A stretch of 64,000 bases of DNA from Cirrosporium novae-zelandiae (GCA_026023565.1 JAPETS010000003.1:806001-870000); one strand, 5' to 3'. Shown: positions 35,003 through 60,859, numbered from the stretch's first letter. Translations and numbers: made by a program. The notes: a model not told the origin generated them from the sequence alone.

Positions 35003-37468
35003 ATGGAGCATCTTCCACTTTAAGATAATGGGTTTAAACTTCTAGTGCCATACTATGGCCTAGAATATGATGGCTTAGACTTTCTTACATATCCGCAACG
35101 CCAGAATTGGATCAAGGAAGCCATACTTTCAGGGAATTGGAACGCAGCCGGGAAGTCTCAGTTTGAAGTGAAGGCTTTTTTGTAGAGTTGGCTGTATTTT
35201 GGTTTGTTGGAGAGCATGTTCGGTATGACTAGCCATTTATTTCTTTTAATATGGAATAGGTAGCTCTGCTATCGATTTGGTGATTAACTTGTGTTATTTA
35301 TAAGGTGATGTCCCCATTCAATTATGGAGCTCTGATTTCCCACTCTACTCTCTTGTAGGCATAAAAGTCTCTGCCACAGATTTCATCCGAGATGAAAACG
35401 GCCACGGATACATTACTACAGCGTTGCTTGAAACATACTAAAACAACTGGGAAAGGTCAACCTGGAAAAAGGGTTCCAACCGCACCGAGATTTTGAGACT
35501 ACATGCTTTAAAGACGAATTCATATATTGAAGAGCGCAGTCGTATTGTGCACCAATTGCTACTCATACGCAACAAAACTACCGCTGCATCAGATCAACCG
35601 TCTTATTTTTTGAATGAGGATTTACTCCTTTCTCTTCAGCTATTAGGTCTGGCCTTGACAGAGAAGAGATGAGATATTTACATGCCCGGTATTAAGTTGT
35701 CAACAGAGGAGGGATATATAAATCACTATTATGACTGGGGCACTAGTGAACGAACGGAGAGGTATATGCTTCATGCAGGATGGTGCCCGAGTGCTATCGC
35801 AAAGGTTCGAAAAGAGTTGGATTGTCTCTTGTATGCCGCTTCGCTTCGGTCGCCCTCAACTGAAAAAGACCATAGCAGATGCACCAAAAGATCTTGCGTA
35901 GCAAACCAGATCAATAAAGAGATTTACCAGATTCGTCATGTCTCTAATAACTGTCAATGTGTATCGTGGAAACCTGATGAAGAAAGGATTCTGGAGATCA
36001 TCAAGGATGGCGGAGTACCTCTCGTCTGTTTTCCAGTCGATTGGCCTGCAGATAGCGAATCTTTAGTGCTTGAAGTCATACGGTACCAACCAGGACAACA
36101 GTATGTGGCTATCAGTCATGTATGGGCAGATGGACTTGGAAACCCATATGAAAATGCTCTTCCGGCTTTTCAAATTTGGAATCTCTGGAGGACCATTTGT
36201 AGTATGTATACAACAGTTTTTGATAATTTTGGAATTAAGTACATGTGGGTTAAGCCCTTCCTCAGGCCGCCGTTTTTATGCCCCGATAAAGTCGTTCCAT
36301 TTTGGATAGACACTCTGTGTGTTCCAGTTATCCCTTCTCTACAAAATTATAGAAGAGAAGCCATCAGACGAATGCGACAAACATACATCCAGGCTGATAA
36401 AGTCCTCATGCTAGATGACGATCTTTCTCATGTCTCTCGAGCTCTTCGAATGTCCAAAGAAGCCCGCCTCGAATTTAGTTTTCGTATGTACCTTTCTGGA
36501 TGGTATTCACGATTGTGGACTCTACAAGAAGGTAAACTCGCACGGGACGCCTGGTTTCGGATCAAGGATGCCACACTTCCCGCCAAGGTTTTATATTCCA
36601 ATTTGGCGCTTGACAAGAATGGATCTATGCATCGCATATGAGAGAATGCATCCAGTGCGCTCTCGACGATGATTGAGAACAGCTGGGTGCCTGACGAAAA
36701 ACTTCCTACCAGCGAGCAGGACATCGGAAAGGTGATTTCCAGCCTAGAGTCTCGCAACACTAGCAATAAAGCAGACCAGATAACCTGCCTCTCCACACTG
36801 CTGGATCTTGATCCCATGCGCTTCATGAACATTACAGACGATGCGCAAAGGATGCGTGAATTCCTCGTATCTCTCCCGTTAATACCACCTGCTATTATCT
36901 TCATGGGAAGCCCTAGGCTCGAATATCAGGGATTTCGCTGGGCACCTTCCTCATTTCTGTGTAGACCAGTCCCAAGCTACAGACTTTCTCAGCTTATTGT
37001 TCTATCTCGCCATCCATATCCTAATCGGCCTGCAGGTTCCATCACTTCCAAAGGCTTAAAAATAATGTTTCCCGGGATTCGCCTGCTTTCGGGTATGACA
37101 GCACTACCTCCAAGTGGAGAATTGATCATAGAAGAGCATCCATCGCCGCAACATATATGGTATGCGAAATTCAACAACGAAACCGAGGAGATGTCTTGGA
37201 ACAATGTCAAAGGCGAAGCAAATGATTCTAGACAGCTGGCGATGATTATTGGGAGCTTCGGACCCAACTATCGTGAACCAATCAATGCTGTATTGGTGAT
37301 ATTGAACTGCGACGTGGAAGGGGGATCAAGAGTGCTACGACTGCAAGTTGATTTGCCAGTTCATCTTGACTGAGTTATCGGATCCAACAGCAGGGGATAT
37401 ATTAAACACCAATGGCGCAAGACTCGCCGGTGAGGATCATCACGACCCAGATGTGGTGTGTTGATTAG
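35003..37468 (+). pseudogene. HET-domain (heterokaryon incompatibility-type) protein pseudogene
   Basis: MEHLPL*...YDGLDFLTYP...FL*SWLYFGLL N-terminus; YVAISHVWADGLGN, FWIDTLCVP, WYSRLWTLQEG HET motifs; QMWCVD* end. In-frame stops at 35021, 35183, 35439 and 36639, and a frameshift near the end. Confidence 0.85.
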
Positions 37469-40430: not shown

Positions 40431-42069
40431 TTATACCGAGGATTGGTAGATACGAGAGAAATTAATGAAATTTTCCCTTTCTGCATCCTTAGTGTACTTC
40501 CCTGCATGCTTATTCTTAAGGTGTCTTGCGAAACAACCGCGCCTCGTATATTCCTTCTCTGACTTATTACAACCCGGTACGCCACATTGGAAAAGGCTAC
40601 CTGTTGTATACCGCTCCCACATTGAGCTATCAGTTTCTAGCCTAGCCCGACGATGATCTACAAGCCTTTGAGCACATTCGTGGATGTTTCTTTGAACATC
40701 CGATTTTGCAAGTTCTAGACGTGTCTTCTCCCGTATATAATCCAAAGTACTCTGACCTTGGCCGCGATCATCTTTCCATTCGTCAAGAGAAACAACTCCC
40801 ATTCCATCGCGGACGTTAAATCGACGATAAAATATCTTTGTAATTTGAGTTGTTACGAGTGCTGAGTCATGGCCTTGGTTTGAACTTGTTGTCATTCTCT
40901 TCATGAATTCAGACAGCATCTTTATATTTTGAAAACCTAGAACTCTTTTACGGTGAGAGATCCTGAGCTTGTCGTGATTTCCGGTTCCTATACCAATAAG
41001 GATCTCGATCATGTCATAGCATGGATCTCCGTGTGTGCCGCCAATCATTGCTGCGACATCATTACAGGCCACTGAGCTTGGATTATTGGTGCCAAATCCG
41101 CCGTCCAAGAAAAGCATACCACGGAGCTCTTTGGGTTCGAAATAAAAAGGAGCTGCCGCTGTGGCTGCAGCAGCATCGGCAATTTTTACATCATGCCCTT
41201 CTCCAGCGTTGTAGATCGTATTGTTATCTTCGTAATTTCGTTTCGGGGGTATTTTATATGTCCGAAAGAGATACGGCATAAAATTACCGTCTTTTTCCCG
41301 ACAAGCTATGACAGCTCTGGCTGTGTTAGGTTTCGCGCGGAGTAGGGATATTGAAAATGGCTTACGATTTGCACAAATCCTTGGGTGCCTCCATCCTTGC
41401 AACAGCGCGGAGTTCTTTGTTTGGCGTAGATCTGCGCCTCTGGATAACTTGCTCGACACAGCTTTCGAGTCTTTTTAAGTCATATTTTGCCCTTCCAATT
41501 ATCCAACGCCCGTATACAAACCGTGAGGCACCAAATACTTCTCCACCGAAGTCTTCAAATGCTCCAAGTGTCTCGTCGACAGACATTCGCAGCCGTCCAA
41601 GCATGAGACTAATTAAACTGAGGCAGTCTTGTTAGTTGTAGTTCATATCAGCTAGAAGGACCGGGTTACCCTCCAGTGCTTGTCCCAAAGATATAATCGA
41701 AGTAGTGGCAGGGCAAATATCGATTTAATTCGTTTTCTCTGCCATTTTCTTGGGGCTCTTGAAAAGTCATTACTTCTTGAGGTGTCCGCTCAGGTGTATG
41801 TGAAAAACAATAGCTTGAATTATGGGGAACTTCCTGTACTCGCTCCAATTCCATTACCTTTTCCATAAGGTCTTTGAGTATTAGAAGACTTGAGTAGCCT
41901 TTAATACCTCCCCCATCTAAAGATAAACGTGAACCAGTTTGCATTTAAAGTGTGAGAAATAGGGCTTACCAAAGCTTAAGATGGCTGGCCTCCTCCAAGG
42001 GTTTCGAGATAGAGAGACGTCAGAATCCTGCCATTTCCCAGGCGTACCAGGGGTACTTGGTTCACCCAT
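40431..42069 (-). CDS. Patatin-like phospholipase, copy 1 (~494 aa; exons 42069-41970, 41916-41670, 41617-41366, 41316-40431), C-terminal C2H2-like finger
   Basis: DGGGIKG, FDYIFGTSTGG (GxSxG), FLDGGFGTNNP (catalytic Asp), CGVPGC...RHLKNKH. The spliced length is a multiple of 3 with no internal stop. Confidence 0.9.
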
Positions 42070-43977
42070 GGCCTTAGTGATGATGCTCAATTATCTTGGG
42101 TGTTTAATTTACCGAATAAGCAAGAACGACACAGTGATCCTAGATTTCTATATGGCTATAATACAGCATACTTAATATATCCTTATAGCTATTGGAAGAG
42201 CCCACCCATTGTTGTAAGATCGGAAAGGAGCTGGAAGCAACTCAGCAAGGCTGTAGTTCACATGCATACCCTAAATTCTTGACCATTGAGATTGACAGCG
42301 GAAAAGATCGACATTGTAGACTGGATGTCCGTTTTTGTTCACGACATCAGTATTCTGTGTGGGGCTCCAACTCCTAGGCTGAGCAATATCAAGGCCGCAT
42401 GAACTTGATATCAACCATGTCTTCCCAATCTGCATAGCTCCAAGGCACGCAAGAATTTCTTATAGGCTTGAGAAGCGAAAAATGTTGGGAAGCCCTCGAT
42501 GTATATTTAGGAGCCCAGAAGGAAGAGGCTACCATAGAATACCAGTCTGAATATTTATGTCACTTAAACATCATTGCATTTGAGAGAATACCTCCAAGAG
42601 GCCATAGCCTTAGGCACGTAAGAACTACAGTTGCCCTAAAAAAAGGACTTTAATCATGGTATCAACAGAAAGGAGGAAATGGCGCATAAAAAGTTGGCAT
42701 GGTTTAGCCTGCTAACTATTTAATGTCTCACATGATTGGATCCTCAGGTTATGGTTGTCACACCAATTTACCGTGCTGCTTCGATATTGAATTGAAACTT
42801 ATCCGTCTTTTATTGATTACAACTTGATACGGTCACTAAGACCATATACTAGGGTTCATGCCCTAATCTAGCGTGTGCGCCACACTTGATAGATAGAGGC
42901 CTCTACTCAGGAAGTAAGTCACCATATCCACACCAGTTATATACCCCTAGATTTGTGCTTTAATGAGCCCAAGCCCTAAGTGTTGTAACGCAAATAGTTT
43001 GGTATTAAAATTGGTACCATTAGTTTCCAAATAATAAATTAATAATTAGCTGAATAGTTCGTCAAAATAAGTAGAATAGTTCATAGTCCTACAACCATTT
43101 GATAAGATAGGATAGCGCGGATAATATTACCAAGTATGTAATTATATGATGACGCCATGTCATCCTGAGTGCTTGTAGAACAGGGGGGCTGACACACACT
43201 ACTAATGACCCTTTGAATAAATGACAGCGTGATAAGGCTAGGTGACTACTAGGATATTCGCTAGTGTCAACCCCGACACCTTTACGGTAGCACGTGGGTA
43301 GATAGTTTTAATTTTCGTTGTCACTAGGAATAGCACTGTCCAATTGAATTGATGAAGAAACGAGTTAACAAACAAGGGTCATAACACAAAGGAGGCGATC
43401 GCCGGGCATCGTATCTGTAGAGGGCGGGAGGGATCATTCGCGATGAAGGGTTCTGCAATAGTACAGCGTTACGCAAGCCCTCCTGGACATGAACGACCCC
43501 ACACCTATGGAGAAAATAGGATTCTGGCTTAGCATGCCCTCTACATCGTGCATAGTAGGTTGTCAACTAGATCACACAATAGAACTTAGTTCTATAGATA
43601 AGCATTAGCAAGATTTTATCACTTTTGTAATTTAAGTAGTAGGGTGTGGTGAGCTGAAAATTCTAGGTTAGAATGAATCTGATACAGAAAGCCATACTAT
43701 GCACTAGCATTGTATAATCCATAAACCAGAGAGGGCGTTAAATGACATCGTTTTAGCTGGACTGCCTTGCCCCTCGAGTGATTATTCCGCTGCCTTTGGC
43801 TATTAAACTTCGGGGTAACGGAACTGTTTTCTCTTATCACACGCATGATTGACATAGCGAGCAGGTTTAAAATCCTTGATGTAGACGCCCAAGTATACCA
43901 CCCCAGAATCAGCTTAATCTTTCATCTTTCAATCTAGCAAGCCAAGAAACCAGCCTTCCTAAAGATTAGCATCAACA

Positions 43978-44367
43978 ATGTCGAATAAACCAAGAAGAAG
44001 TTCTCGGGGGAGCATTGTCTTCGATCCGGCACACCAAATAGTGAGAAAAGGCGATTTTGAGGAAGGTATGTGACCTTTGGAGCCTATATCACTGTTATAC
44101 TTACTTACATATGTAGCTGCAAACTACATGAAAGTTGATATTCCAACTAGATGGGGCGACAAGTTCGATATTTACGTCGACCGTTGGTCAGAGGGTGGCC
44201 CAAAGTTCATCATGGCTAGTGATCCAACTGGCATAGGCGGCCAAGATTACCTAGCAACTATCAATCTCCATAATATTCATAAATGGAAACGCGTGACGAA
44301 GCAAGTGACAACGATCGCTGTGATAGGAGAGATACCACGAATCACTAGCCAGAAAGGTTCAACTTGA
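43978..44367 (+). CDS. Small unknown protein, copy 1 (112 aa; exons 43978-44065, 44117-44367)
   Basis: caacaATG context, 51-nt gtatgt...tag intron, and a clear paralog at 50412-50832 with the same intron position and phase. Confidence 0.8.
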
Positions 44368-45429
44368 ATCATCATAGAAATAGCGTAAACAACCTTTTTA
44401 ATTAAGCATTTGAAGCTCGCTAATGCAATGGGGCTAGGGTATTAGCATGACCGCATGCTATGAGTACCACTCTTCCGTTTTCAAGATAATATTAATGTGG
44501 AATCTTATTTGCCCTTGGCTTCAATATATCTCCATAGGTTCATTTATTCGTGTGTAATGTGTAGAAGTAAAGTGATGTTAGCACTACCAGGTGATAGTAA
44601 ATATGTCTAAATAGTTAGTCTGGTTGCTGTGGAAAGAGGACCGAAAACAATGCGGTGTACTGTACAATAGAGATGGCATTAGAAATAATAGGAACTAGGC
44701 TGTAGTAATAGGAGATGAATAAAAAGGCTTTGGCAAAAGTATATTGAAATATTAGCTAGCGTACTTGCAATCATTCTTAGGTAGCAGAATATCCATCTGC
44801 CTTCCGTGTTGACTAGAAGGTTATCGAAAACGTTGAAGTATCCTTCATGAAAAGCTACGGGAAGCTAGGGTAGTCCTTGACGGTGTGGTATATATTTACT
44901 ATTATTAATTACTAGTAGATAACTAGCTAAAAAATAACCTTAATCTATAATATTTTTCTCCATTATGAATTTAGTATCTGAGCACCTTGGGCCCAGTCAT
45001 GTTTACCATATTCTGGTGCCTGGTGTTAAGACGTGATAGAGATCTGGCATCTGCATTTTTACTTTGTCAATCCCTGAAATGTTTGAACAGACCCACATTT
45101 TGACTAGGGTCTAATTTGGCTGTATTTTAACCAATAATTTCCAGTTTCGGTGTCTCTTTTCCCTCCTCTGTGGCCCCCTTCACTGTAAATCATGGAAATA
45201 TGACAGAAATTAATGAAAATGGTATATTTTTCATAGGTTTAATTCTACATCTTTACCCAAAGTAACAATTTAGATAAGATAAAGCCACGTATAGATTAGA
45301 TAAGGAGCATTAGCTATCGTGCCGTCGACATCCCCACCCCATAACATAATACGCATACATTATGGTATGGCTATCGAAACCTAGAAGCCCTACGGCCCTA
45401 CCACTGGAGTCCGAGGGATACAAGGCTAA

Positions 45430-45945
45430 GGCATAACATCCATTAAATGGGGGCTAGCCGTAGTCAAAGCTTTATATGAGAAACCTCAGATATGCACATT
45501 TGTGAATAATATCAGATTGCCATAGCCTCTCTCAAAATGAAAAAAACCTGCTCTCAGAAATTTTATGGATGCTTCAACCCCTTATCTTGGCGCGCTAGAA
45601 TGCATTGTTCGGTCTCTAGGAAATGACCGGAATCAATTGATAGCTGAATTTGGAAAGGCTAAAGGATCTATGAGCATGCGGCTGTTGTTGAATGAGGTAA
45701 GCGCCTGAATTACGAGTCGCATTTCCCTCAGCTGGGCTATACTGATTATCCTACAATCTTTGACTCCGTCCCTTCCCTGCTTTCTATTTGCAACCTAGAG
45801 GATGCCGGAACCAGATGACCATGATGGTGCTGGTGATTCATTTTATTGCTCACACCGCCCTTGGGCTATGACTGACATCAGTCGGATGACCATTCAATGT
45901 ATTTTGACATGCATCTTGGTAGACATGTTGATTTAGTATCTATCG
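45430..45945 (+). pseudogene. Degenerate coding relic with a paralogous relic at ~52400-52655
   Basis: Stop-interrupted frame ...MDASTPYLGALECIVRSLGNDRNQLIAEFGKAKGSMSMRLLLNE|gtaag, then SDDHSMYFDMHLGRHVDLVSI, versus SDDH*MYIDLRFGREIDLVPI at ~52595. Confidence 0.45.
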
Positions 45946-45960
45946 TTGACGGGGTTAAGA

Positions 45961-46634
45961 ATTGACTAGACCAAATAGACAATCTGACGTAGACAGACTA
46001 GACCAACCAGACCGACCAGACCTTGATTGCCCCAAGTCTATCCGGTCTATATAAATACGAATTATATGGTAGGGGGAAGATTTTTGTGGTGTTGAAGTTT
46101 TGGGGGGGAATTTGGGGGATTTAGGGGATGTCGGAGTTCGGAATCTTCGAATTTTGGGTTTAACTTAAAGCCAAAAAGATATAATCTACTCCCCCACGTG
46201 CCCCCATATAGCCCTGAATACCTACCCGTTGTGCCCCTGACTGAGCTTGCAACTGAGGTTTCTACTGAGGCTCTGACTGAGATCCTGACTGAACTTCTGA
46301 CTGAGCTTCTGATTGAGGCTCGCACTGAGCATTCTACTGGGTATTTCATTGAATGTTTTATTGAACATTTGACTAAATTTTTAATTCTAGATATCTAAAA
46401 ACCCAAGTTTGGCCTCGAATTCCTTGCGTATACAATCTTATATTATAATTGGGAAAAGGTTGGGAATTGAAAACAATAAGTAAGGGAATACTATTTGGTG
46501 GGGGGTAAAAGTCAACACCAAAACTTCCGCCAAGACCTTGATTTATATATTATATAATTATCAACTAACCAATTAAACCCCTGTTACGCTATGTGACTGG
46601 ACGGTCTATAAACCGTCTATTTGGTCTAGTCTAT
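45961..46634. mobile_element. Non-autonomous TIR element (MITE-like) with an internal 12-bp tandem repeat
   Basis: attgactagaccaaatagac (45961-45980) matches the reverse complement of 46615-46634 at 19/20. Sub-terminal agacc repeats and an internal actgagcttctg-type array at ~46235-46345. Confidence 0.65.
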
Positions 46635-47096
46635 TGACAACACTAGTAATTAATCCCTAGGTAGTTAATAGTTTTTGTTTTATATCTATGTATTGAGTAT
46701 TGGAGCCTAAGGTGCACTCTCGTTGCGGTTCTTTTGTGTTCGATGTAGTTTTGACCTGATCGAGGTCATCGTTGGTATACTCATTTGGTGATGGAAGTGG
46801 GATGCTATTAATTAGCTTAAGTGTAACGCTGTCGTTAAGAGATTTGATTATGCGGTGCTAATCCCTGAGATAATGACCCACCAAAGGTAAACAGTCATTT
46901 AATGTTGGTTGGTTCATAATTAGCCTAGCTTATGAAAGTATAATGATATTTGGATATAGTTAAGGTTAAATATATGCATATTCCAACATCAGGCCAAGTA
47001 AATAGGAATAGGAGTTTAAGTCAAAAAACATGGAATATTTGAAATTGACTTTTGAAAAAGTGGGAAAATATGCAAGTGCAGTAGAAAAATAACATC

Positions 47097-48619
47097 CTAT
47101 TCCCCATTCCATTCATGCCGGCATTTATCAACGAATTCGTCAAATTCCTTATCATTCCCCATTGTATGATGGTGGGAGACATGTCTTCTGAAAGAAGTGC
47201 GACTGGTATATTCCTTCTCCCATTTAGAGCATCCTGGGATATCGCAATAGAACATCCCGCATCTTGTATAGCGCTCCCACCGTGAACTGTCAACATGTAT
47301 CCTAGCTCGACGAAGACTTACGAGCGCTTCGGCACATTCATCGAGCATAGCTCTAACATCCGTGTTATTGAGTTCAATGATTGTTTGAGTTTCAATATAT
47401 TCTAGGGTGGACGGACTCCCGTTGCGACGCTCATTCCATTGATCTAGGGACACACACCCCATTCCTTGTTGCACGTTAAATCGGTAATAAGGTACGCCAT
47501 GTGAACTTAAAATTTTGCGGGTTCCTTTGTCATCTGAGGATGAAACCATTCTCTTCATGAACGTAGTAAGTTTCCACATATTCAAAATGGGTAGCCAGCT
47601 TTCAGAGGGAGAGTCCTGGACTAAATCGCGTTTCCCTGTTCCAATACTAATGAAGAGTCTGATCTGTCTATAGGGGTGACCGCCAGCTCGGCCGCCTATC
47701 ATGGCTGCAACGTCGTCACAAGCTACCCCGCCTGGGTTGTTATTGCCAAATCCTCCATCTATAAAAAATGTCCCCTGAACCATTTTTGGCGTGAAATAAA
47801 ATGGAGCAGCTGCTGTGGCTGCAGCGGCTTCTGAAATCCTTACATCGTATCCTTCTCCGGGGTTAAGTACTAGTATGGAGTTATTATGGTGTTTGTGTCT
47901 TCGAGGCTGTACGTATGTGCGGAAGAGATAAGGCTTATACTGGCCATCTTTTTGTCGGCAGGCGACTAGAACTCTAAATATGTCAGTCCCCATAATTAAT
48001 CGTGATATTTGAAATAGCTTACGACTTGCATAAATCTCGAGGCGCTTGCATTCTAATAGGGGAATTAAGCTCCCTATCTGACTCCGGAAGGTAATTCTTT
48101 GCGACAGTTTCAACGCATTTTTCAAGTTTCTTTTGGCTATATTTGGCCCGTCCAGTTATGAATTGACCATGTACAATTCGTGGTGTACCAAAAACCTCTC
48201 CGCCTAGCTCCCGGAATTGGATAAGGCATTGATCAACAGACATCCGTAAGCGTCCAAGCATAAGACTGATCAAGCTGGAAGAGCATTGTCAGTGCCATCA
48301 CAAACATAGGGGAGGGGTTGTTTTACCCCCCAGTACTTGTTCCGAAGATATAATCAAAATAATGACAGGGCATATACTGGTTTACATCAACTTCCTGATC
48401 GAAAGGACAATAACTTGAGTTATGAGTATCTCCATAGTTTCCACTTCGTTCTAGGGCATTTATTCTCTCCATAAGACTCCTCAGTATGAGAAGGCTTGAG
48501 TAACCCTTGATCCCACCTCCATCTAAAGACACATCAGCCCGGTTCCACCAACAGATATATGTAAGCAGCTTACCAAAACATAAGACGACTGGTGTTTCCC
48601 AGGGATTTTGCTCTGTCAT
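47097..48619 (-). CDS. Patatin-like phospholipase, copy 2 (~456 aa; exons 48619-48574, 48522-48327, 48274-48023, 47973-47097), C-terminal C2H2-like finger
   Basis: DGGGIKG, FDYIFGTSTGG, FIDGGFGNNNP, CDIPGC...RHVSHHH. The three introns are at the same positions as in copy 1. Confidence 0.9.
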
Positions 48620-50411
48620 AGTATTAGGTGCTCCGTGATATTGGAAATATCATTTTATGAAATAGAGAAAATACTAGTCTGTGATCTAAGGCAATTATAA
48701 CACAGCTTGTATAATATATATGTTCACTACTATCAGCAGAAATATATCCGGTTTCGAGGCTTGTCCTGAGCTGAAGAAATTTGCCATAAGGCTGCAACTC
48801 CGAAGCATTTTCAAATTTTCAACTATCGACATGAATAACAGCTAGGTTCGGGATCTTTTATGCAGCGGTATCTCCTCATCACAGCGGGAATATGGTGGCT
48901 GGGGGTTTTAGCTCCATGATTGAGCAATGGTAAAACTCGTGCTACCCATATTTTAATATGAATATCCCTGAGATGCACCCTTGAATTTATAGGCTTGCAG
49001 TATGGCAGACGCGAGAGGTTTCAATACAACATTTAGATTTGAAGGAGTCCATGCATGAACCATTCGTCCACTCATCCTTATCAGGTATTTTCTTATCTAT
49101 GCCATCAACCTTTCCCGTTCAAGTAGATGAATTGAATAAAGACATAGATTTGGTAGGCGAGTGGCGTAGATATATAGGTAAGTAGCCATAGTAGCGTGAG
49201 TAACGAAGTAATCCAATATATATATGTTCGTTGCTTAGATCCTCCGTAAGCCTAGTTACTACTTGAGTAGTGTAAGGAATCGATAAGACCTACTAGAAAA
49301 CTTTCAAATAATAATTTATTATACGAAGTATACCCTATCTCATAACAGTCCCGCTCCTAGGTCCCCGATGACAGGTAACCACTCAGCCTGCTCTGTAGTC
49401 TTACGCTGAAGAAGAATTTAATGGACAACAACACTCATCCATTTTTTAATTATTCAAGATGGCCCATATTTTGAAAAGAAAGCTGGTCTGCAAGCTAAGG
49501 AAAGTACAACATAAGCAGTAAATTGCTATTGAAGAGTTTCTTTTAGAAGGAAGCTGCAATTATTATCTACTAGACGGGTCACCATTGGCGCACGCTAGCA
49601 GGGTGTTATGTAAGGATTATAATAGGTCAGATAACCATTTTCAGGTAGAGTCAGGCATCAAGCTCTTTGATGAATAGTATTGAGCCTTAAACTCTTATCA
49701 TTGGATCAATCAACCTTTCACCATTACATTGGTGCATGAGCAGTCGTGTGGTACGGATCCTTTGTGTTACCCTAGGCGAGGCAACGAAAATTGCTCAAAA
49801 TGTATTCGAGGATAATTATATGAGCTAGACTAACCCCGCAAGGCTGTAACAAGGCCCTTCCCCATTCTAGGGTTCATTACCGAACAGAACAAGACTTGGT
49901 GTTACCCTCATCTTTTAAGAGTCAGAAACTAATAGCACTTTCAGTTGTACTATTGTGAAAGAGTTGTAGGTTTGAGCATTTAGATAGGGCTGTGGGGGGT
50001 TCTCCGCAGCGCCCCCGCTCTCGCATACCAAGAGTTTTCCGGATAGGGTTAGTCCCCGCATTCGGTGCCCTAGGCAGCCAAAAACATGTAACTCTTTCAT
50101 ACTATGACTTCATTTTCCTAGCAAGACGATGAATAGGAATCATCTGCCATCTGCGCAGTTCCGATATGTTTTGTTCTCCAATAGCTGAAAACCTAATGAA
50201 AAAAATGGCATCCTGACATGAATATTGTGGCGGCCTATTATCCCAGCCGCATACGTTTTCGGAGCTTCGTGTTCCATATTAGCGACGGCCTTATGATTAG
50301 ATCAATACATTCCTCTATCGAGATAGATATAGGAAACTGTTACCCCTTGTCGGTTCCGACCAGTTCGTCATTCTATCTAAATATTTGATATTCTAGCCAC
50401 TTATTCCAACA

Positions 50412-50832
50412 ATGCCCACCACCTCTCAAGAAAACAACGAGGAGCGCATCATATTTGATCTATCACAGCAAACGGTGAAGAAAGACCGTCTTAAACAGGG
50501 TGGGTTACGTTATTGGCATCTTGTCGAAACTATACTCACCTTACATAGACGCAACATACACGCGAGCCGAAATTCCAACACGATGGGGTAACATATTCGA
50601 CGTATATGTTGACCGCTGGTCCGACGAGGGCCCAAAAATTACCATGGCCCGAAGCCCAGGATATCTAAGTGGTCAATATTATCTGGCCACAATAAACCTT
50701 CATGGTCTCGACAAATGGAAACGAATTACTAAGAAAGTGAAGTCTATCGATATTATGGGGGATATCCCAACGATCCCAAAGTCCAACATCGAGGAACAAG
50801 AAGCTCAACCGGCTTATAATAGGCCAACCTAA
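50412..50832 (+). CDS. Small unknown protein, copy 2 (123 aa; exons 50412-50499, 50549-50832)
   Basis: caacaATG context, 49-nt intron, 41/66 identical residues to copy 1 over the core IPTRWG...GDIP. Confidence 0.8.
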
Positions 50833-51127: not shown

Positions 51128-51160
51128 ACAGACCAGACCGCCTATTTGGTCTAGTCTATT
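51128..51160. repeat. Short remnant of the TIR of the 45961-46634 element
   Basis: ctatttggtctagtctatt (51142-51160) equals the right TIR sequence, preceded by agaccagacc. Confidence 0.6.
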
Positions 51161-53700
51161 CCTTTCCCTGGTAATGGTCACCTTGCCTGTAAATAAAACA
51201 ACGACATGGCTATTAAGTTGCAAGATCTAAGCTAATAGAGGGCAGTTTGACTAAGGAGGACAATTTCCATATATTGTTAATGTATACACCTATTTAGGGC
51301 ATTGAGAATATTACTGATAGAATCATAGGCTTAGATTTAAATTCAGTCTAGCGATATTAGGCTTCTATCCCATTCATTGTACTTCGAGACCGCAAGGTTT
51401 ACTTTCATTTAGATTAGATTAGATAAAGGCGTGTAGAGATATTATGAATATCTAAAAAAACTTCGCTTCGCGTCGTTTATTATTTATGCAAGGACAAGGC
51501 TGAGGGGAGAGGTTTAGAGACAAGGTACTCGGGTAGAGCCTACCCCAACAGCAATGTGCCACGGCTACTTATTCTTACAGGTTGCCATACATATCGCCCC
51601 AACATGTACAGTACAGTAGTTTCGTGTAAGGGCCCTCTGAACTTGAGTTGCGTATTCCCATTCTAGAACGGGCTGTAGGTGTACTTGGTCAATCCATGAT
51701 TTGTTCAAGGGAAGCCAGTTTCTGACATAGGTCTTAGCTGACTTTCCTTGAATAAATCGAGGATGGACGTAGTGCAAGTAATAGCCCAAGCCGTCCCAGC
51801 GCTTATGAATGTGATGGCAGTATTGATAAAAAAATCCTGATATCAGCGTGACCAATCACTAGCGCTCTTGGGAATCGAACCATAAACCTGTAATGTATGG
51901 CATCCGACATTACTGTATTATATAGGTCGTACGAATAACTTTGGTTGGTGGCATACGGACAAACTGTGGCCACCGAGTTATTACACGGCGGCGGAGAAAG
52001 CGGGAACAAAGCAATCTCATCCTACTTAATTCTCCACGCAGTAAACTGGTCCGAGACATACCCCCCATTTTTCATACGGATTAATATATGCTTAATTTCA
52101 TAAGTGGTTGCATGTCCTTACTCGTTATTTAATCCACACGTGACATTGATATTATTCAAATGAGTAACAAATTAAGGTCACGGTGTATTTCCACCACTAA
52201 ATGTAGGCGCTAGATTTCTATCATATCATATCAGCCAGCCTCAAGTAAAGGTAGGTACTCCGACGTTGTGTTCATAATTAAAAGAAATATCAGAGATTAC
52301 ATTTTGATTTTTTGAGCAGCTATTTTGAGCAGCTCCGCCGCTACTTTAATAGTACTTAAATATAATATAGAATCTCACTCTCTCTATCTTGATGTTGTAT
52401 TACACTGCTCGGTCTCTTTCTAGGGGTTGGAATTGATGACGGCTGAGTCTGGGAAGCCTAGGGATCTATGAGTTTATTGGTGAGTAAGGTAAGTACTTAA
52501 ATTATATTATGAGAGACATCTTTCAGCTAGGTTTTATTGCTTATCCCGTAGCCTTCCTCGTTTTCGAGCCATGTAGCCTCTGGGATGCCTGAGTCGGATG
52601 ATCATTAAATGTACATTGACCTGCGGTTTGGCCGAGAAATTGATTTGGTACCTATTTTTGAGCTAATCCGAATCTTGGCTGTCTTGTTGGACGACTGCTT
52701 GTCGTTGCTTTCACGACGAGAATGAACCGTGGAGGGCCTTTAGCAACGTAATACTTACAGGGATATTGTCTTACTACATCGGCCAGACTTGACCAGTTTG
52801 AAGCAAAGAACACGTAGTTGAGCACCGGTTTAAAACGGTGGGGATTTCTAGGCAATGAAACATCTTCTCTCTTTTCGATGAGAGAGGAAAGGCCAAAAAG
52901 AAATCCACAAACTGAGCCCGGCAATATTTCTGAACCATAACAAATATGGCTCACCAATCCCCCAAATCACGGATCATTGGTTCCGGTGGGGAGTGTTGTA
53001 AAGCTAGATGTGCAAGCTAAAAGAAGTTCATCGAGCTTTTAGAGGTATATACATATCTACCGTACAATGTTGTCGGAGAGTATCCTAATTCCATCCCAGC
53101 ATTACCGATCGGAGAAACGAAATAGCCCTATACATCTTGATCAACACGCCGAAGACGGATGAAATGCTCTTACAAATTTGATTCATCTATCGCCATCAAA
53201 TCATTGACTACGTATAGGTAGACGTGGGTAATCCACAAATCTGGACGGAAGCTCCTGAGCTTTGAGACGAACGAGATGGTCAAGAAAAACTAAAAATGGT
53301 AACGAAAGAAATTTGTCTTTGTGTCGTCAGACTCTGTCCCTTCAAATATTCCAGTTTTGTTGTTGTTGATGAGGGGATGCACAGTTCAGTTGTCGGAGAG
53401 TCAGGAGGTTGAGAATTGCGGTCCGCCCCTGCCTTTATCTCTAGCCCTAATGTTCTTTAATTGTAAAACAAGTGGATTCAGTTCATGTCAGTATGTAGCA
53501 GACACTTACCTTAGTTCTTCTAGATGTATCTTCTTGCAACTGCATCGAAGAACGTTCATAAATCTCGCGCACAAAGCCTGTAGCGCACGATCATTTCTTT
53601 TGTATAAAACACTTATAATCCGTAGCTGTAAGTCTTCGCTCTCAAACTTACCATTTCTTCGTTCACAGGATAGATAGATACTGTACATGTACAACCAACC

Positions 53701-55020
53701 ATGGACAACCCCATTACCAACGTCTTCAGCATCTCGCGAGGGTGGACTCCTGCAGAGCTTTTGCTGCTTCTCTGCGTCATTCTCGAAATATTCATCCTAA
53801 CCGCCGTGGGCGCAACAGTTTTCCTTCTCAAAACCCTATCCCTTTCCCGAAAAAAGAACACCAGCGGCCAAGAAAACAAGATTGATTTCATCAAATTTCC
53901 GTCTGATATCGCATCTGACTACGATAACGGGCGTCGGGCAGACTGCCGGAGCGAAAACATATCCCCGATGTATAAAGATGGATTGCTCTACCCGGAGGGT
54001 TTGATATCGGGAACCCAACGTCGTAGAACCACACCAGAGCTTTGGGAGCAGATTCAAGGAATTGCAAGCGATGGCACTATAATTAGCCAATCTTCGGGGG
54101 TGATGAAGGAAGGAGACGACGAGAATTCAACAGCAGAGGAGAGTGTCCAGAATAGGGGAAGGTGCTTAAAAAGGTTGTACGAGCTCGAACAGCATGAGAA
54201 GGTCATCGAACGATTTAATTTTGAAGTTCCTAATCAACCACCACCTCAAAATTCGCTGTTAGCATGGAGGAGCTCGATCCCAACACCACCGCTTCCAGGA
54301 ATTCGTTCCTCGCAAGTTGAACCGGTAGTAGATGGGCTCCATCGCAAAGGTAGAACTGAAAGTGAAGGATCAGACTCAGCATTGACTGATACTACCTATG
54401 TCACGGGCAGCGAACCAGTTATAGAGAAGAATAAGGATATACCCAACTCCGTGGAGCTCATAGCAGGGCCAGATAAGAACTGCGAGGCTGTTAGTATTGC
54501 AGCAGAAGCAGCACCAATCCTTAGCGGACTAAGAAAGTGTTTTCGAGATGAAGGGAGGAGCAACCCGGAATTTTACAACTCGGGGGGAGGGGTCCTAAGC
54601 AAAATACCCCTGCCGTCTGGTGTTAGAAAGAAGCCTTGTTCACTGAATTTAACTACAACGAGACCTATGGCTGTAAACACACTACACGAGCTTCCCACAT
54701 CATTCTCTGCGCCCCTTCCAAATAGCTTATCTGAGAGGCCAAGACGAAATGCCTTCTGGGATAGGGAAAATCCGCTTAATATCACAGGCAGCCTTCTTGA
54801 ACATATCTTGACACCAATGGATTCGTCGACAAAGGTCGTAGCCGCTTTGGGCGAATTGGAAGAGCAGATTAAGCGGCTCGGCCATGAGCTTGATTTGTGG
54901 ATTGAAGATCTTTGGGTGTTGAGGGATCAAACAACAGAGAGAAATAGTGGGTGTGCAAAAAGACAGCTGTCAGAGATAAAGAGGGTTTCGGGTTCAGGCC
55001 CGACGACAATGTTCCCTTAG
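53701..55020 (+). CDS. Hypothetical protein, 439 aa, N-terminal TM helix, mostly disordered, C-terminal coiled-coil-like segment
   Basis: Long uninterrupted ORF; no family recognised. Confidence 0.55.
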   Translation: MDNPITNVFSISRGWTPAELLLLLCVILEIFILTAVGATVFLLKTLSLSRKKNTSGQENKIDFIKFPSDIASDYDNGRRADCRSENISPMYKDGLLYPEGLISGTQRRRTTPELWEQIQGIASDGTIISQSSGVMKEGDDENSTAEESVQNRGRCLKRLYELEQHEKVIERFNFEVPNQPPPQNSLLAWRSSIPTPPLPGIRSSQVEPVVDGLHRKGRTESEGSDSALTDTTYVTGSEPVIEKNKDIPNSVELIAGPDKNCEAVSIAAEAAPILSGLRKCFRDEGRSNPEFYNSGGGVLSKIPLPSGVRKKPCSLNLTTTRPMAVNTLHELPTSFSAPLPNSLSERPRRNAFWDRENPLNITGSLLEHILTPMDSSTKVVAALGELEEQIKRLGHELDLWIEDLWVLRDQTTERNSGCAKRQLSEIKRVSGSGPTTMFP

Positions 55021-59430: not shown

Positions 59431-60859
59431 TTGACCCTTTCATTCACCAATCACTTCCTCCCATCTCCATAACAATGCTATCCCAAATACGTTCAAAAGC
59501 TCTCTGAACCAGATTCCACCCGCATACGAAACACTATGGCGAATTGTCCTGCGGCTTGTGATCGAAGTCCTCTACCACAACCATGCGCACACAGACTTAT
59601 GGCGCAAGACACTTGTAGCATTTGCTCAAGCTCCAACACTCACTCACCTCGAATCTCATAGCCTTGTTCCCGGAATGACCGTCCGTGCTATCGTCAGCGA
59701 AGATCTGCGTCTATATCCCCCAACGCGACGAATCTACCGCCAGCCGCAACCGTTACATAGTACTACTGATGCGGAAAAAAAGCCATTGATGCTGGCCGCA
59801 GATATCGAGCACCTTCACCGCGACCCAGAAATATGGGGACCCGATGCGTTGACATTCAACCCTGAACGATAGCTTAGAGATGCCGGCGATCTAGACGAGG
59901 CGAGGAAAAGGCAGAGAGATTTCAAGGCATTTATGCTGTTTGGGCACGGGTCGTTTGCTTGTCCAGCGAGGCAGGAGGTCGGCCCTATGATGATTGGGAT
60001 TCTGGTAGCGGTGCTGGTGGAGAAGCTATGGGAGAAGGGGATTACAATCGAGGCGCTTGATCATGCGAGTTCGGTCGTTGGAAGGGAACCACTAAGCCTG
60101 GAGAGGGATAGCTACAGGGGACTTTATATTCAGATACCTTAGTCGGGGGGCTTTTTACAAAGTTAGAGGTTAATCCTAAGGCTTAGGGTTTCGAAAGGGA
60201 TTTCCTAGAGTGTAATTGTAGAATAATTCAGAGCTGCTTTTTATCATCGATATCAATGAACACGGCTATTTTCACACTAACCCTGATTAATTTCCTTACA
60301 AGATAAAATGAACAGAGCTTCGAATTTTTGAGGCCAGACGATAATTTTTGAAGAGCCTTCTTAACCCATTAGCATTATGTGGAGTATTTTAATTGTAAGG
60401 GCTCACTGACATTTATGCCGTGGGTGATCGTTTTCCTGCTCATTGCATATTGACTTGGGTGGACGTGTAGGCTGGTCAGGATGAATGTGCTATTTTTTGA
60501 ATATGCATCATGTTATATGGCTACATGCGACAGGATTTCAGTTTTCCGAGCATCCTCGTACTTTGGCTTCACCCGATTGCGTGAGTTCAGGGTGGCGACT
60601 CTCACCGGCTAGAACGGTAAGAAAATGGCCAAACCGTCATAGATATTCGTCCGGTATGTTATACCGGACGAAAAGATCAGAAAGAATGCGGTCTTATATA
60701 AAAGCATCACCCTCACATTGACGGCATCATATGATATAGAACTCTCCTGCTCTCCTGCACCTTGTCGTTAGGCAAATGTTAGAATATTTTAAATCCTCGT
60801 CTCTCATTTCTTAGCAATGAAGTGGTGATGGGAATCAATTGTAAAAGATATAGAATCAA

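Follow-up and report, generated by a model that had tools for sequence, protein, structure and literature searches.

Regulated cell death is carried out time and again by patatin lipases, whether in the cyclic-oligonucleotide-based antiphage signaling systems (CBASS) of bacteria or in the NOD-like receptors (NLRs) of fungi. Both the role of patatins as death effectors and the existence of fungal incompatibility systems encoded by adjacent genes, which an earlier note on the DNA studied here took as established, are in print (e.g., in the available portions of bioRxiv 10.1101/2022.04.03.486892 and PMC12881547). Here we describe two head-to-head gene pairs, each composed of a patatin lipase gene and a gene for a small protein without a recognized family, at positions 40431-50832 of a 64,000-nt stretch of fungal nuclear DNA (GCA_026023565.1 JAPETS010000003.1:806001-870000; hereafter the window). 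The source assembly is a metagenome-assembled genome recorded as Cirrosporium novae-zelandiae, with the locus on a 1.46-Mb contig; the genus is placed in the Xylobotryomycetes, an isolated class-level lineage (available portions of PMC6712537).

Among the described systems, PLP-1/SEC-9 of Neurospora crassa, with counterparts in Podospora, Cryphonectria (vic2) and Botrytis (Bcvic1/2), resembles the window pairs in that a patatin gene adjoins a partner gene, and in that system the patatin activity executes cell death upon partner recognition (bioRxiv 10.1101/2022.04.03.486892, PMC12881547, available portions). PLP-1 is a three-part NLR made up of patatin, NB-ARC and TPR domains, whereas the window lipases, at 494 and 456 aa, possess the patatin domain only; the PLP-1 partner is a SNARE protein, whereas the small proteins of the window have no Pfam family. 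The hetC protein of Aspergillus fumigatus is, like the window lipases, a patatin protein without NLR parts, and the likeness is one of architecture. It acts in incompatibility and was validated by expression of the alternate allele, but it acts allelically, and its authors report seeing no linked polymorphic partner in the portions of the paper available (PMC11138114).

CapV, the cGAMP-activated protein of bacterial CBASS, provides the best match to the window lipases both in the PDB and among defense profiles, and it carries the same Ser-Asp dyad motifs. The window lipases differ from it in missing the family cut-off, in having no cyclase gene near them among the ORFs scanned, in belonging to a eukaryotic host with introns, and in a C-terminal extension that contains a C2H2-like motif. 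Stand-alone patatin-like phospholipase (PLP) genes are also found as cargo of Starships, in accessory regions beside HET/NLR genes (PMC9156397, available portions). That likeness is one of gene content, and it differs in that no captain or other Starship marker turned up in the window open reading frames (ORFs) scanned, which were ORF pieces compared with Pfam in overlapping sets of 38, 13 and 49. A protein of about 100 aa that binds and blocks a GxSxG lipase is known from ATGL with G0S2 or HILPDA and from the Tle-Tli pairs of the bacterial type VI secretion system, where the genes are adjacent. This last likeness is conceptual only, as no sequence relation is expected; the animal regulators are unlinked to the lipase gene, and Tli proteins are exported, whereas the small proteins of the window lack a hydrophobic segment.

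One ancient tandem duplication of both genes

The first pair comprises patatin A on the minus strand (40431-42069) and small gene A on the plus strand (43978-44367), and the second comprises patatin B on the minus strand (47097-48619) and small gene B on the plus strand (50412-50832). Both pairs lie where the earlier note had placed them, and the divergent spacers, for which it gave about 1.8-1.9 kb, measure 1908 nt in pair A (42070-43977, the presumed shared promoter region) and 1792 nt in pair B (48620-50411). Patatin A is encoded by four exons (42069-41970, 41916-41670, 41617-41366 and 41316-40431), and its 494-aa model equals the public protein P0006 exactly. Small gene A has an 88-nt exon 1 (43978-44065), an intron at 44066-44116 and an exon 2 at 44117-44367, and its 112-aa product is P0002 exactly; small gene B likewise has an 88-nt exon 1 (50412-50499), followed by an intron at 50500-50548 and an exon 2 at 50549-50832, and its 123-aa product is P0001 exactly. 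For patatin B we made a paralogy-guided model that follows the splice sites used in patatin A (exons 48619-48574, 48522-48327, 48274-48023 and 47973-47097). The resulting 456-aa frame has canonical splice sites and no internal stop, and it contains the DGGGIKG, GTSTG and DGGF motifs. The four genes splice into intact frames, as had been claimed, and the intron arrangement described earlier is reproduced in full: three introns interrupt each patatin gene (A/B lengths 53/51, 52/52 and 49/49 nt) and one interrupts each small gene after its 88-nt first exon (51/49 nt), with the same positions and phases in both copies. All introns of the four genes are of the GT-AG type.

The public model of patatin B, P0007, departs from this structure. 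It retains intron 1 in frame and uses a donor site 51 nt upstream of the A-type site, so that 17 codons ending in GTSTGG are lost; as annotated, it would make patatin B look catalytically dead. The stretch coding for GTSTGG matches at 81% over 62 nt between the copies and ranks with the best conserved sequence in the unit. Because it is so well conserved, we take this stretch as coding and patatin B as catalytically intact, and P0007 probably mis-splices the catalytic serine out.

Similarity between the paralogs is far above chance in both gene families. Small proteins A and B are identical at 44 of 75 positions in their core (59%) and at 52 of 112 overall (BLASTP E = 2e-34), values that uphold the substantial divergence asserted earlier while replacing the core figure of 41/66 given for it. 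The two patatins are identical at 242 of 452 positions (BLASTP E = 2e-86), and, apart from the downstream block described below, only coding DNA can be aligned between the units, at 61-66% identity. The copies are collinear, with offsets of 6660 nt (patatin gene), 6434 nt (small gene) and 6712 nt (a conserved block downstream of the small gene), and the duplicated unit extends over at least 5.5 kb. These collinear offsets and the equal amino-acid divergence of the two genes (dN 0.368 for the small gene and 0.388 for the patatin) show that one tandem segmental duplication copied both genes together.

The duplication is ancient, as shown by saturation at synonymous sites (proportion of synonymous differences, pS, 0.755 in the small gene and 0.731 in the patatin), by a third-position identity between paralogs of 0.42-0.44 with no transition excess, and by spacers that can no longer be aligned. 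All four genes have nevertheless remained intact and under purifying selection since that event, as shown by their intact frames, their identical intron positions and phases, and a pN/pS of about 0.4 (0.39 in the small gene and 0.41 in the patatin, with pN, the proportion of nonsynonymous differences, at 0.291 and 0.303). The earlier observation that both partners were kept in both copies is thus borne out. Repeat-induced point mutation (RIP) was considered as a source of the divergence and rejected, with third-position transitions and transversions in ratios of 36:29 and 148:103 and a composite RIP index of 1.09-1.29 in the surrounding gene-poor island, which stays short of the customary thresholds. 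The rest of the window contains no additional copies or relics of the two genes.

The patatin lipases and the small proteins

The window lipases belong to a known kind of enzyme. The Pfam Patatin family (PF01734) matches P0006 with 78.2 bits and P0007 with 50.0 bits, against a cut-off of 27.7. Patatins are defined by an oxyanion motif G-G-x-[KR]-G, a nucleophile motif G-x-S-x-G and a catalytic Asp in D-G-[GA]. Patatin A carries DGGGIKG at residue 34, GTSTG at 111 and DGGF at 271, and the paralogy-guided model of patatin B carries the same motifs at 16, 76 and 237; by these motifs both are predicted to be catalytically competent enzymes. Both lipases are stand-alone proteins, Patatin being the sole Pfam family found in them, and no NB-ARC/NACHT or TPR/ANK/WD parts were detected by Pfam. 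Hydrophobic segments and signal-like N-termini are absent from both lipases. Near the C-terminus of both, a conserved C-x4-C-x15-H-x4-H motif resembling a C2H2 zinc finger begins at residue 444 in A and 408 in B (tails at 40434-40520 and 47100-47230). A search for a zinc-finger family in these tails gave no Pfam match in the last 75 or 175 residues (best E = 0.13), and we describe the feature as a motif only.

Comparison with defense systems places the lipases near CapV. The PADLOC model for a CBASS phospholipase effector (PDLC00758) matches them with E values of 1.2e-32 (patatin A; model positions 8-292 of 331) and 3.4e-21, and CapV (8zr9) is the best sequence match in the PDB (E = 4.4e-12), followed by iPLA2-beta (4.8e-4) and potato patatin (2.6e-3). 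Since CapV models are the top-scoring defense families for the lipase, one might suppose a CBASS-like signaling pair, in which the lipase would be a CapV homolog activated by a nucleotide and the signal would be made or relayed by the small protein. This supposition is close to refuted. The lipases score 92.1 and 58.4 bits against the NCBIfam CBASS_lipase model (NF041079), below its cut-off of 200, and the small protein has no match to a nucleotidyltransferase or any other family (0 PADLOC hits). The window ORFs scanned included no family of the cGAS/DncV-like nucleotidyltransferase (CD-NTase) or cyclase type, and patatin A has a tail of about 130 aa beyond the CapV-type profile matches, the PDLC00758 match ending at residue 396 of 494. 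The lipases are thus CapV-like in sequence yet fall outside the CBASS_lipase equivalog.

In a protein atlas, patatin A is grouped with stand-alone Ascomycota proteins labeled "PNPLA/FabD-like", which are 541-575 aa long (feature score 0.97; clusters of 50-119 members). The TM score is 0.81 over patatin A residues 15-492, to be taken as a lead and not as an alignment. This grouping suggests that the whole lipase architecture, including the C-terminal region, is common in Ascomycota. At the level of sequence, a word-seeded search with the last exon of the patatin gene at E <= 1e-5 passed only two of 2340 candidates, both from the source genome; this threshold is strict and would hide weaker, more distant fungal homologs. 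As only proteins of the source genome pass it, the sequence distance to other fungal patatins is large. An AlphaFold2 model of patatin A built on a two-sequence alignment was unusable (pLDDT 34.5).

The small proteins, of 112 and 123 aa, are hydrophilic and basic (isoelectric points 9.7 and 7.9), free of cysteine and without a hydrophobic segment, and they are probably soluble and intracellular. No family was found for them in Pfam (best E = 0.12, DUF7258, which is noise), PADLOC, NCBIfam or PHROGs. Likewise, a PDB profile search gave nothing (best E = 0.43) and the atlas features gave nothing convincing (best 0.77). AlphaFold2 on a three-sequence alignment gave a mean pLDDT of 35.8 and the atlas model a pLDDT of 0.33, both unusable.

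Relatives of the small proteins are few. When 1.84 billion representatives, unrestricted in length, were searched with a HMMER profile at E <= 1e-3, three matches were obtained, namely the paralog, a 98-aa protein (P0003, E = 1.2e-4) and P0004. We judged P0004 to be spurious, as it is a 1346-aa repeat protein in which only 16 profile positions were matched. A word-seeded profile search, in which four of 91 candidates passed and three of these were the query sequences themselves, added the 152-aa protein P0005 (E = 1.3e-16). Two outside relatives are therefore detectable among the 1.84 billion representatives and 5.8 billion clusters, P0003 and P0005, and they lie on metagenome contigs of 1492 and 959 bp. 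By tblastn, both match both small genes of the window (E = 1e-9 to 6e-6). P0005 spans the junction of exons 1 and 2 and shares the exon-1 motif I-x-[FY]-D-x3-Q, and because it runs across the junction it supports the splice model of the small gene. By these matches the small-protein family is real, and it is tiny in current data. Attempts to locate the source DNA of P0003 and P0005 confirmed 0 of 85 matches in each of two metagenome scans and 0 of 69 in bacterial and archaeal genomes. No fused (Rosetta-stone) form of the small protein was present among the HMMER matches. Derivation of the small protein from a fragment of the lipase gene was rejected, as hhalign gave a probability of 0.1%, indicating that the two are unrelated.

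Functional partners or unrelated neighbors

Any link between the two proteins is one that we infer. Our leading reading is that the patatin and the small protein are in a functional partnership of some kind, to which we would assign a little less than an even chance. Each pair has kept its adjacency, its orientation and a similar spacing, while the DNA between the genes has lost all detectable similarity. One trait of toxin-antidote and enzyme-inhibitor systems is that their genes are adjacent and co-inherited, and the window has two head-to-head pairs, co-duplicated and both retained. Gene duplicates mostly disappear well before their synonymous sites saturate. Here both pairs have remained complete past that point, which favors mutual dependence, and such an outcome is much more likely if one member needs the other. 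Adjacent partner genes are also a recurrent design in fungal incompatibility, as in the patatin NLR PLP-1 with SEC-9 (bioRxiv 10.1101/2022.04.03.486892, PMC12881547, available portions).

The same arrangement could have come about if the patatin and the small gene were unrelated neighbors that a single segmental duplication copied as one block and that were each retained for separate reasons, with the small protein having nothing to do with the lipase. We consider this a serious candidate, although it too falls somewhat short of even probability. Several observations weigh for it and against a partnership. The argument from retention rests on a single duplication event, and any segmental duplication of two neighbors looks this way at birth. 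Spacers A and B share nothing beyond shuffled controls: they have nine 10-mers in common (shuffle mean 4.7, maximum 14), no 12-mers, no conserved ORF and no common motif that we could find. Moreover, at 1.8-1.9 kb the spacers are long for a promoter region that two fungal genes would share, and in a gene-poor island few rearrangement breakpoints would be expected to part two neighbors. Set against these points, independent retention of both duplicates of two genes past saturation would generally be expected to be rare, and chance proximity does not readily account for the orientation and spacing kept in both pairs or for the equal divergence of the two genes.

Rarity of the small protein bears on the same choice. 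The lipase architecture appears to be common in Ascomycota and the small family nearly unique. As the one family is common and the other has only two relatives, most relatives of the lipase would be without a recognizable partner of this type. The argument is weakened by the fact that the lipase itself is barely recognizable outside the source genome, so that a partner of 110 aa evolving at an equal rate would be invisible. A further point on the side of unrelated neighbors is that the stand-alone patatin het gene of A. fumigatus works alone, without a linked partner (PMC11138114, available portions). Should the genes prove to be unrelated, what the locus offers would be ordinary: a tandem duplication of great age from a fungal class that has seen little sampling, a single orphan family and one probably mis-spliced public model, that of patatin B.

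Returning to the partnership, its most detailed version would make each pair a two-protein cell-death or allorecognition module, composed of a non-NLR, CapV-like patatin and a dedicated small protein of a new family, linked through an ancient duplication and present as two non-cross-reacting specificity variants. Fungi would then possess their own counterpart of lipase-immunity or lipase-inhibitor pairs, and we regard this full version as rather doubtful. On the leading reading itself, the pair would be expressed as a module from the shared spacer. The patatin would be the effector, a membrane-lipid hydrolase of the type by which fungal NLRs and bacterial CBASS bring about regulated cell death, and the small protein would be its cognate binding partner, most likely restraining the lipase or being monitored by it. 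The duplicated modules would then have evolved apart side by side (dN 0.37 for the small gene and 0.39 for the patatin), and the two resulting pairs would not necessarily cross-react. The earlier note proposed a dedicated activator, inhibitor or antidote, with each copy a specificity variant; the small protein may act as an inhibitor, as an activator or as a guarded target. The narrower proposal that the small protein is an inhibitor or antidote of the lipase seems to us unlikely.

To our knowledge, the mechanism by which stand-alone fungal patatins are silenced and triggered is not known, and a keyword search of the open-access literature found no description of a patatin/small-protein pair of this type. 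If the module exists as proposed, a dedicated small partner would offer a simple two-protein system for the study of patatin control and would give a role to a new protein family. A functional pairing of any form would continue the theme of linked effector and partner genes in fungal cell death, here without NLR parts and with a partner drawn from a new family.

The gene-poor island and its noncoding DNA

Ordinary genes surround the locus, including those for eIF3, a kinase/response-regulator protein, AA9, a fucosidase, PhoD, SRP54 and Rrp15. Both pairs lie inside a gene-poor island at about 37400-59400, which has a GC content of 0.39-0.43 against 0.44-0.52 in the rest of the window and a somewhat higher TpA/ApT ratio (0.82-1.02 against 0.57-0.89 elsewhere). 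None of the 49 island ORFs of at least 60 aa that flank the four genes has a Pfam family. The island may be old accessory or mobile DNA.

The earlier note held that neighboring HET and P450 genes are pseudogenized, which is plausible for both. A HET-domain ORF at 35673-37373 on the plus strand has recognizable HET motifs and is interrupted by one in-frame stop (36639-36641), which leaves two options, a pseudogene or an intron that went unrecognized. The sole trace of a cytochrome P450 is a fragment at 59435-59872 on the plus strand, which scores 18.9 bits in Pfam against a cut-off of 22.8 and whose adjoining ORFs have no family; it would fit a decayed gene.

These surroundings raise the possibility that the island (about 37-59 kb) is what is left of a Starship-type element that has degraded, with the small gene as its cargo, an origin that would be compatible with either a partnership or unrelated neighbors. 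Starships, and degraded regions resembling them, carry PLPs together with DUF3723, ferric reductase (FRE) and NLR/HET genes (PMC9156397, available portions), and the island contains two PLPs, adjoins the HET ORF with its stop, and shows the lowered GC content and the lack of Pfam families in flanking ORFs given above. Yet the window ORFs that were scanned yielded neither a DUF3435 captain nor DUF3723 or a ferric reductase, although the window may stop short of the ends of such an element. The island also lacks long terminal or direct bounding repeats, and the age of the duplication far exceeds that of typical active elements. We consider a Starship-type origin improbable.

Just past the second unit, at 53674-55020 on the plus strand, there is an open frame of 448 aa with one hydrophobic segment near its start; the rest is low-complexity, and it has no Pfam family.

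Outside the genes, similarity between the units persists downstream of the small genes. The conserved block at 45880-45949, downstream of small gene A and collinear with the duplication, has its counterpart at 52592-52661, downstream of small gene B, with 53 of 70 nt identical (E = 7e-9). Weaker similarity is seen about 250 nt upstream of the blocks, at about 45600-45700 and 52400-52495. No frame is open in both blocks and neither has an Rfam or tRNA match. An RNA gene was considered and rejected, given the lack of Rfam and tRNA matches and of a stable fold (z-scores -0.84 to +0.53). The blocks may have a regulatory function or may derive from exons of a third gene that has since decayed.

Two kinds of repeat were also observed in this noncoding DNA. 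Three copies of a 35-39-nt repeat with the core CTATTTGGTCTAGTC, about 80% alike and in both orientations, lie downstream of the genes at 45952-45986, 46612-46650 and 51134-51175, and may be the remnant of a small repeat element. Between the units, at 46236-46339, there is a degenerate tandem repeat with a period of 12/24/48 nt and 71-78% matches.

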